A model generated the notes under the pieces. That model did no database searches and was not told where the DNA came from. It saw nothing but the letters and a program-made list of their open reading frames with translations. A program made the translations under genes and the position numbers. 24,000 nt of DNA from Jiangella endophytica (GTDB taxonomy: Bacteria; Actinomycetota; Actinomycetes; Jiangellales; Jiangellaceae): assembly GCF_003427025.1 (NCBI RefSeq), contig NZ_QVAI01000019.1, forward strand, positions 40,151 through 64,150, written 5' to 3'. This document shows positions 12,909 through 13,037 of this stretch, in pieces. Position 1 is the stretch's first letter. Every line of letters starts with the position of its first letter.

Positions 12909-13037
12909 GCCAGGGCGAGAACAGAGGCGGCGAAGGCTCGTCGCTCTGCCGGTTGAGCTACGGCCCGCAGACCGCCGGGACTCGAACCCGGAACACACGA
13001 TTCCGAAGTAGCCCTCGCCTGCGCATCGCCCTGGCGC
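12909..13037 (-). ncRNA. yrlA: Y RNA-like ncRNA with a circularly permuted tRNA-like domain (YrlA-type); ends approximate
   Basis: All elements are on the minus strand, hand-folded:
- T-arm: CCGGG-UUCGAGU-CCCGG (12991-12975).
- Closed acceptor-like hairpin: CGGUC-UGCG-GGCCG (12974-12961).
- UA (12960-12959), equivalent to U8/A9.
- D-arm: GCUC-AACCGGCA-GAGC (12958-12943).
- 4-bp anticodon-stem-like helix: ACGA (12941-12938) with UCGU (13000-12997).
- 5-nt variable loop: GUGUU (12996-12992).
- Two long helices closing the 5' and 3' ends: GGCGAGGGC(U) (13019-13010) with (A)GCCUUCGCC (12938-12929), and GCCAGGGCGA (13035-13026) with UCGCCCUGGC (12918-12909).

The tRNA tertiary-pair nucleotides are present (U8-A14, A15-U48, GG in the D-loop, T54-A58, G53-C61). 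The element sits about 130 nt upstream of rsr and is co-oriented with it. Confidence 0.7.

Follow-up and report, generated by a model that had tools for sequence, protein, structure and literature searches.

A probable YrlA-type Y RNA gene and a second, shorter Y RNA-like unit precede the Ro60 ortholog gene rsr in Jiangella endophytica

Organization of the rsr locus

We analyzed a stretch of 24,000 nt from Jiangella endophytica (assembly GCF_003427025.1, contig NZ_QVAI01000019.1, positions 40,151–64,150), hereafter the window, in whose coordinates all features of this locus are given. The minus strand of the window contains, in the direction of reading, two Y RNA-like units followed by gene rsr, which codes for an ortholog of Ro60 (Table 1). 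The longer unit is very probably a YrlA-type bacterial Y RNA gene, whose product would be a partner of the ring-shaped Rsr protein encoded downstream on the same strand; the shorter one is located between it and rsr.

The deduced product of rsr matched Pfam domains TROVE (2.8e-14) and VWA_2, as well as PDB entries 9l5y and 9kop (4e-38), both of them structures of a "TROVE domain-containing protein", and is identical to WP_116952402.1, annotated under this same name in J. endophytica (Actinomycetota, Jiangellales). Its open reading frame (ORF) is intact, with a G+C content of 0.96 at third codon positions (GC3) and the codon-position profile of real genes in this 73% G+C genome. Upstream of its ATG there is a gap of 387 nt, in minus-strand reading, that extends to the stop codon (position 13168) of a doubtful ORF. 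We did not find any coding-like ORF in this gap, since the ORFs overlapping it lack the GC3 signature of the real genes of the window. The distance to the rsr start is 129 nt from the 3′ end of the longer unit and 35 nt from the shorter unit.

Table 1. Features of the rsr locus of J. endophytica (window coordinates).
Feature	Position	Strand	Characteristics
YrlA-type Y RNA gene (probable)	12909–13035	minus	127 nt between outermost paired bases; Rfam and clade models
Closing helix, 5′ strand, GCCAGGGCGA	13026–13035	minus	10 bp; inverted repeat I1, 100% complementary
Closing helix, 3′ strand, UCGCCCUGGC	12909–12918	minus	preceded by conserved GUUC of the 3′ internal loop
Conserved motif GGCGAUGCG	13022–13030	minus	overlaps the 5′ strand of the closing helix; counterpart of the proposed Rsr-binding 5′ strand
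Internal loop, UGCGCA opposite GCCUCUGUUC		minus	between the 10-bp and 9-bp helices
Second helix, GGCGAGGGC with GCCUUCGCC	13011–13019 with 12929–12937	minus	9 bp; read from the sequence
Bulge, UACUUCGGAA	13001–13010	minus	10 nt
4-bp helix, UCGU/ACGA	12997–13000 with 12938–12941	minus	position of the top of the tRNA anticodon stem (40–43 with 27–30)
Permuted tRNA core	12943–12996	minus	order V loop, T arm, hairpin, UA, D arm
V loop, GUGUU	12992–12996	minus
T arm, CCGGG/UUCGAGU/CCCGG	12975–12991	minus
Acceptor-like hairpin, CGGUC-UGCG-GGCCG	12961–12974	minus	5 bp including one U-G; closed by a tetraloop
U8 A9 (UA)	12959–12960	minus
D arm, GCUC/AACCGGCA/GAGC	12943–12958	minus	followed by G
Second Y RNA-like gene	12815–12904	minus	about 90 nt; between YrlA and rsr; model R2
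Hairpin, CCAGGCGA-CAC-UCGCCUGG	13048–13073	minus	third CGAUGCG directly after; from the sequence and direct repeat D4
Shine-Dalgarno sequence of rsr, GGAAGGAGGG	12788–12797	minus	strong
rsr (Ro60 ortholog; TROVE and vWA)	11203–12780	minus	525 aa; Pfam, PDB, GC3

A permuted tRNA-like RNA upstream of rsr

A first-pass annotation, made from the sequence alone, had proposed a circularly permuted tRNA-like Y RNA of the YrlA type in a gap without credible ORFs next to a Ro60/Rsr gene. Both the identity of this gene and the lack of ORFs agree with the data above, and all the elements that had been listed (V loop, T arm, hairpin, UA, D arm and interrupted helices) are present on the minus strand. The proposed extent, 12909–13037, was correct at its start, whereas its end lay 2 nt too far (Table 1). 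The nucleotides of the tRNA elbow, also claimed to be in place, occur as U8, A14, A15:U48, G18 G19, U54 U55 C56, A58 and G53-C61. The position of the anticodon loop is taken by a long stem joining the ends of the RNA, which has no free CCA end. Likewise, C13011 and the adjoining bulge form the conserved sequence YUAY (CUAC, 13008–13011) with which the V region of YrlA RNAs begins.

The pattern formed by T arm, hairpin and D arm matched once in the window, compared to none in 100 shuffled sequences. Searches with Rfam in E-value mode retrieved model RF02553 (YrlA) at positions 12909–13032 of the minus strand as the only credible match, aligned over its full length (1–114) with 43.2 bits; the E-value was 2.5e-8 in a search of 551 nt and 1.1e-6 for the whole window and both strands. 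The covariance-model check suggested in the first-pass annotation thus returned YrlA as the best Rfam match, on the predicted coordinates and strand, at a score below the gathering threshold (see below).

ARAGORN did not identify any tRNA or tmRNA gene in the window, and the Rfam tRNA and tmRNA models had no match in it even at E ≤ 1. We then examined a construct in which the core was cut at the UGCG loop and rejoined in the tRNA order; what was added to it was limited to two base pairs of the acceptor, a closing pair with its 7-nt loop, and ACCA. ARAGORN called a canonical tRNA of 76 nt in this construct, whereas it made no call for the native order. As a tRNA is called only after de-permutation, the description of the element as circularly permuted and tRNA-like is accurate, and the structure alignment of Rfam leads to the same permuted order.

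Conservation and covariation of the YrlA unit

A scan with the Rsr protein, covering one genome per species, resulted in 56 related loci, mostly from Actinomycetota. We searched these loci for the permuted core with a regular expression and used hairpin energy and ARAGORN calls to remove junctions of adjacent real tRNA genes; the matches to T arm plus D arm at pairs of tRNA-Arg genes in loci L022 (position 1256) and L041 (position 1837) were such junctions and were discarded. The cleaned search showed the permuted module upstream of rsr, and on its strand, in about 40 loci, with an acceptor-like hairpin that varies in sequence and length nearly everywhere.

A MAFFT alignment of 44 units (A1) was used to build a covariance model, R1, that includes the flanks and the tRNA module. 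The RNAalifold consensus of A1 comprised 29 pairs, of which 21 showed compensatory changes. Standard pairs occupied 94.4% of the alignment cells in the proposed structure, compared to 35–50% when partners were slid by 1–3 columns; similarly, there were 284 cells with double changes, against 44–74 after sliding, and the covariation score was 0.595, against 0.078–0.156. Compensatory changes occurred in eight of the nine pairs of the closing helix, with 92.9% of its cells paired, and in six of the seven pairs of helix 2, which amounts to 14 of 16 for both helices together. The T and acceptor-like stems also covary, and the D stem is invariant, being therefore uninformative for or against the structure. 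For the 4-bp helix, the 44 units form a mean of 3.3 of the four pairs (1.7–2.1 in shifted controls), with 14 distinct fully paired combinations. The covariation that the first-pass annotation had suggested looking for in homologous regions upstream of rsr is thus present in the helices of these 44 units.

The Levitt pair 15:48, defined here by the nucleotide following GCUCA and the nucleotide preceding the T stem, was G:C in 22 units, A:U in 21, including that of the window, and another combination in one. The stretch UACUUC (UAC or UCC, then UUC) was invariant or nearly so in the alignment, and all the nucleotides that are invariant across the 44 homologs are intact in the window copy. Model R1 scored the longer unit of the window at 120.6 bits and retrieved 52 further matches of at least 81 bits, distributed in 44 of the 56 loci and all of them on the rsr strand, including some outside the training alignment.

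A second, shorter Y RNA-like unit

The region between the longer unit and rsr contains a second unit that carries the same 5′ motif as YrlA, CGAUGCG(N)GGGCUACUUC, for which there are two matches in the window and none expected, and that also shares with it the 3′ motif GUUCUCGGC. Its stems are GCCGA/UCGGC and GAGCCGGG/CCCGGCUC, and in place of the tRNA-like module it has a plain GC hairpin. The closing stem consists of 5 bp plus 4 bp with a bulge, and a strict search for a 9-nt closing stem missed the unit for this reason.

To avoid circularity, we built model R2 with 32 short units exclusively from other loci, leaving out the sequence of the window, and compared it with the whole window with filters off. 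R2 detected the YrlA unit with 48.6 bits (E-value 1.4e-10) and the second unit with 36.5 bits (E-value 1.8e-7), whereas the next match in the window had 16.6 bits. With default filters, the second unit escaped model R1, in which flanks and tRNA module are included; with filters off, R1 gave only a local match of 12.1 bits. A MAFFT alignment of the units of shorter grade (A2), in which the second stem of the window unit is two columns out of register, had 88.9% of cells paired in the stems, compared to 29–53% when slid. As the closing helix of A2 was picked by complementarity, only the second helix constitutes an independent test, and all six of its pairs showed double changes.

We did not find a T arm in the second unit, which lacks a GUUCRANYC T loop. 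Its positional counterparts in the closest loci, L001 (2854–2938) and L003 (2846–2945), do carry the T loop. By resemblance, rather than by formal membership, the second unit would be of the YrlB type, for which there is no curated model.

The hairpin located upstream of the YrlA unit (Table 1) looks like the closing helix of YrlA after loss of all that lies between its strands, and direct repeat D4, CGCATCGCC, occurs both in this hairpin (13049–13057) and in the YrlA unit (13022–13030). This hairpin may be the scar or remnant of a third unit that has been lost, or else may serve in processing or as a terminator.

Comparison with known bacterial Y RNAs

The closest likeness in organization is with Mycobacterium smegmatis (Chen et al., 2014, RNA 20:1715; PMC4201824), another actinobacterium with the order YrlA, second Y RNA and rsr on the same strand. 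There, YrlA and YrlB derive from one precursor and both immunoprecipitate with Rsr (PMC4201824). The mycobacterial YrlA also has a permuted module in the order V, T, acceptor-like stem and D, a terminal stem with a conserved 5′ motif, and no control by an rtc operon. Nevertheless, going by its published description, its acceptor-like stem has 7 bp, instead of the 5 bp and UGCG loop of the window RNA; RNase P cuts the mycobacterial YrlA, and CCA is added to it (PMC4201824). Additionally, M. smegmatis YrlB keeps a possible T arm, whereas the second unit of the window has only a GC hairpin.

YrlA from Salmonella Typhimurium (RF02553; Wang et al., 2018, bioRxiv 10.1101/312249) shares with the window RNA the domain order, the closed acceptor-like stem-loop, the tRNA tertiary contacts and the conserved D and T stems, and the Rfam model aligns end to end. 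Conversely, the Salmonella gene is downstream of rsr in an RtcR-controlled rsr-yrlBA-rtcBA operon, whereas the window RNAs precede rsr and we did not find rtcB, rtcA or rtcR, or any tRNA gene, in the 24 kb examined. The window RNA also differs in lacking a V hairpin, in having GGCGAUG for GNCGAA(N)G, and in scoring under the Rfam gathering threshold.

Deinococcus radiodurans contains Yrn1 and Yrn2 (Chen et al., 2013, via PMC4201824 and PMC7790460), and its complex of Rsr, Y RNA and polynucleotide phosphorylase is the only bacterial system with a worked-out mechanism (PMC4201824; PMC7790460). As in the window, there is more than one Y RNA per locus, upstream of rsr; their terminal stem binds Rsr and a distal module tethers the effector. 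However, the T and D elements of Yrn1 are arranged otherwise, with a stem-loop between them that is the counterpart of the anticodon arm and not of the acceptor stem. No Rfam or model match linked the window RNA to Yrn1, which its authors regard as an independent lineage.

In summary of structure, the longer unit has the linkage to rsr, expected within about 4 kb for YrlA, and its strand, the domain order, the tertiary contacts with 15:48 covariation, the YUAY sequence and the terminal stem of YrlA RNAs; covariation of 15:48 was also the argument of Chen et al. for the tRNA fold of YrlA (PMC4201824). The window RNA confirms, rather than extends, a known concept, because a tRNA-mimicking Y RNA beside rsr was described in 2014 and its structure in 2018. 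YrlA RNAs near rsr have been reported from 254 bacterial species and 22 phages; Streptosporangium, Gordonia and Mycobacterium are among them (PMC4201824). With our results, two Y RNA genes, correctly delimited, are added to a genome in which the protein names list only a "TROVE domain-containing protein".

Proposed mode of action

It is known from the literature that Y RNAs bind Ro60/Rsr by their terminal stem, chiefly through its 5′ strand, and that in D. radiodurans and Salmonella Typhimurium they tether Rsr to polynucleotide phosphorylase. YrlA RNAs are further described as stable, Rsr-bound in vivo and modified by TruB and DusA. By analogy with this published work on other species, both RNAs of J. 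endophytica would be transcribed with rsr or just ahead of it, and then cut from a precursor. We infer co-transcription with rsr because a terminator scan revealed no terminator-like site between the Y RNAs and this gene. The terminal stem of each RNA would bind to the Rsr ring on its outer face, the 5′ strand bearing GGCGAUGCG being the presumed binding site. The distal half of the longer RNA is predicted to fold into an L-shaped tRNA mimic that lacks an anticodon loop and, since its acceptor-like stem is closed by a tetraloop, also a free CCA end. Because this stem is limited to 5 bp and closed by a tetraloop, we predict neither cleavage by RNase P nor addition of CCA. The tRNA-like module would serve as a docking or regulatory surface linking Rsr to another RNA-handling factor, whereas the second unit would have the same type of Rsr-binding stem with a plain hairpin in place of the module.

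Weighing of alternative interpretations

Several observations weigh against the identification of the locus as a pair of functional Y RNA genes, and the first concerns the Rfam score. At gathering scores Rfam has no match in the window, as the 43.2 bits of the YrlA unit are short of the threshold of 69. Together with the lack of ARAGORN calls, this agrees with the claim of the first-pass annotation that the gene would be missed by standard annotation. However, around 25 units from 20 related actinobacterial loci (L002, L004–L007, L009–L013, L015, L020, L029, L034, L035, L037, L039, L044, L051 and L052) scored 65–149 bits with R1, and none of them reaches 69 bits with Rfam YrlA. The shortfall therefore reflects where the threshold is set and not the window copy, because the whole clade falls below it; with family-specific models, or a lower clade-aware Rfam threshold, many Y RNAs that now go unannotated would be recovered. 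The 5′ motif, GGCGAUG, also deviates from the published GNCGAAN0-1G by one nucleotide, with U for A at position 6; the clade consensus at this place is CYGNUGCG, a strongly conserved variant of the published sequence. Likewise, the minimum free energy (MFE) fold of the YrlA unit as a single sequence did not yield a cloverleaf and was only mildly better than those of shuffled sequences (z −2.19), with a z of −1.29 for the second unit. The support for the YrlA fold is thus comparative and not thermodynamic, because MFE alone misses the cloverleaf. A scan with the sigma-70 consensus, which is poorly suited to actinobacteria, did not find a promoter.

The two units could also be conceived as a cis-acting leader of the rsr mRNA, through which Rsr or a tRNA-binding factor would autoregulate translation or stability of rsr with no release of a trans-acting RNA. 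Their location on the rsr strand at 35–129 nt from its start, without a detected terminator-like site or separate promoter in between, is compatible with a leader, as is the single precursor that comprises the Y RNAs and the rsr region in M. smegmatis (PMC4201824). We nevertheless consider a leader improbable, because related units occur far from rsr within tRNA arrays (L001, 1371–1530, about 1.5 kb upstream) and even downstream of it (L048, 4722–4887), and because the homologs accumulate, bound to Rsr, as discrete RNAs in M. smegmatis, Salmonella and Deinococcus (PMC4201824).

It seems very unlikely that the element is a decaying relic without present function, be it a pseudogene of a Y RNA or what an old insertion has left of rearranged or tandem tRNAs. 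Against such a relic, the nucleotides invariant in the 44 homologs are all intact, pairing is complete in every helix, the acceptor-like hairpin consists of a 5-bp stem closed by a tetraloop instead of two abutting tRNA ends, and the rsr ORF is intact, with a strong Shine-Dalgarno sequence and a GC3 of 0.96. These data outweigh, in our opinion, three observations that would agree with a cassette acquired and now eroding, namely the isolation of Rsr at 90% identity, the absence of its neighbors from beside rsr elsewhere and the possible truncated third unit just upstream, as well as the fact that our first regular expression also matched real tandem tRNA junctions in other loci. We give still less credence to a true tRNA gene in permuted form, or a tmRNA-like gene in two pieces, with halves that would be processed and aminoacylated and act in translation. 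The elbow nucleotides are all present, de-permutation produces a canonical cloverleaf and M. smegmatis YrlA is cut by RNase P and has CCA added to it (PMC4201824), but the window RNA has a long end-joining stem instead of an anticodon loop, and neither ARAGORN nor Rfam recognized a tRNA or tmRNA. We hence retain the interpretation of the longer unit as a YrlA-type Y RNA.

Y RNAs, tRNA arrays and rtcB in related loci

The related loci contain one to four Y RNA units upstream of rsr, in three grades: a full tRNA mimic, a T arm only, or a short hairpin. Between two and four tandem units were found around positions 2300–3000 in loci L004, L005, L006, L009, L010, L012, L015, L029, L033 and L035; the four units from L005 are at approximately 2445–2515, 2530–2671, 2688–2800 and 2816–2963. 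ARAGORN called a tRNA-Pro in L004 (2513–2590), L005 (2534–2607), L009 (2536–2614), L035 (2532–2606) and L044 (2771–2842), which coincides with the 5′ half of YrlA and was not confirmed by the Rfam tRNA model at the gathering score. These calls cover the 5′ strand of the stem, the V region, the T arm and the first strand of the acceptor-like hairpin, and are likely false tRNA annotations caused by YrlA.

Immediately ahead of the Y RNAs and rsr, and on the same strand, 23 of the 56 loci have an array of at least five tRNA genes, with a maximum of 18 in the 3 kb upstream of rsr (L001, L003, L014, L016, L021, L022, L024, L026–L028, L031, L033, L038, L040–L043, L046–L048, L050, L053 and L055); L050 has 16 of these genes, and both L050 and L055 contain seven more downstream of rsr. 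Short Y RNA units are interspersed among the tRNA genes of the arrays, as is YrlA in L001 and L003. Gene rtcB is found within 3 kb of rsr in 19 of the 56 loci, usually inside the array; in L021 it is the array gene of about 1.2 kb at 414–1682 of the plus strand (Pfam RtcB, 1e-111), with counterparts in the 18 other loci. Additionally, a gene for a phage-type integrase is located downstream in L021 (5347–6507) and L016 (5285–6445), on the minus strand in both, which hints at a mobile island comprising the tRNA array, rtcB, Y RNAs and rsr. That Ro and a tRNA-like partner would form a platform for RNA repair, beside phage tRNAs and RtcB, is a general idea that has already been published; our full-text literature search found no paper joining "tRNA array" with Ro60 or TROVE. 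Tandem graded Y RNAs in tRNA arrays with rtcB are the more useful lead on the role of the tRNA-like module.

The Rsr protein from the window (WP_116952402.1) is a singleton in its 90%-identity cluster of the protein collection, and the neighbors of rsr in the window are not conserved beside rsr in the related loci. Flanking proteins in the window, unlike Rsr, have close counterparts in other Jiangella species, and the cassette of rsr and Y RNAs may be species-specific within the genus. The absence of array and rtcB, the non-conserved neighbors and the singleton Rsr would fit an acquired and pared-down cassette. Extending this idea, the cassette could be what remains, reduced and fixed in the chromosome, of a mobile RNA-damage toolkit, with the tRNA-mimic module acting in a contest over tRNA integrity; we offer this as a speculation that is rather unlikely as it stands. 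In related Actinomycetota, mostly metagenome-assembled Acidimicrobiia, such a toolkit would comprise a large tRNA array, rtcB, several interspersed Y RNAs of three grades, rsr and, in at least two loci, an integrase. Were this proposal true, the graded series of Y RNAs would be a record of stepwise derivation from array tRNAs, and the mimic would be, beyond a generic tether, a decoy for anticodon nucleases or a guide bringing Rsr and a nuclease to damaged tRNAs.

Other features of the window

The ORFs at 13168–15463 matched nothing in Pfam or NCBIfam, lack counterparts in the related loci, and show no sign of belonging to the system. The G+C content, of 70–76% elsewhere in the window, falls to 61% at positions 14001–15000 (region 13700–15500), in a dip spanning ORFs 13752–14510 and 14501–15463, both without Pfam match or related-locus counterpart; this stretch, about 1 kb from the Y RNA cassette, may be foreign DNA. 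Genes for a MacB-type ABC transporter lie downstream of rsr, and a DUF222 protein is encoded at positions 4863–6632.

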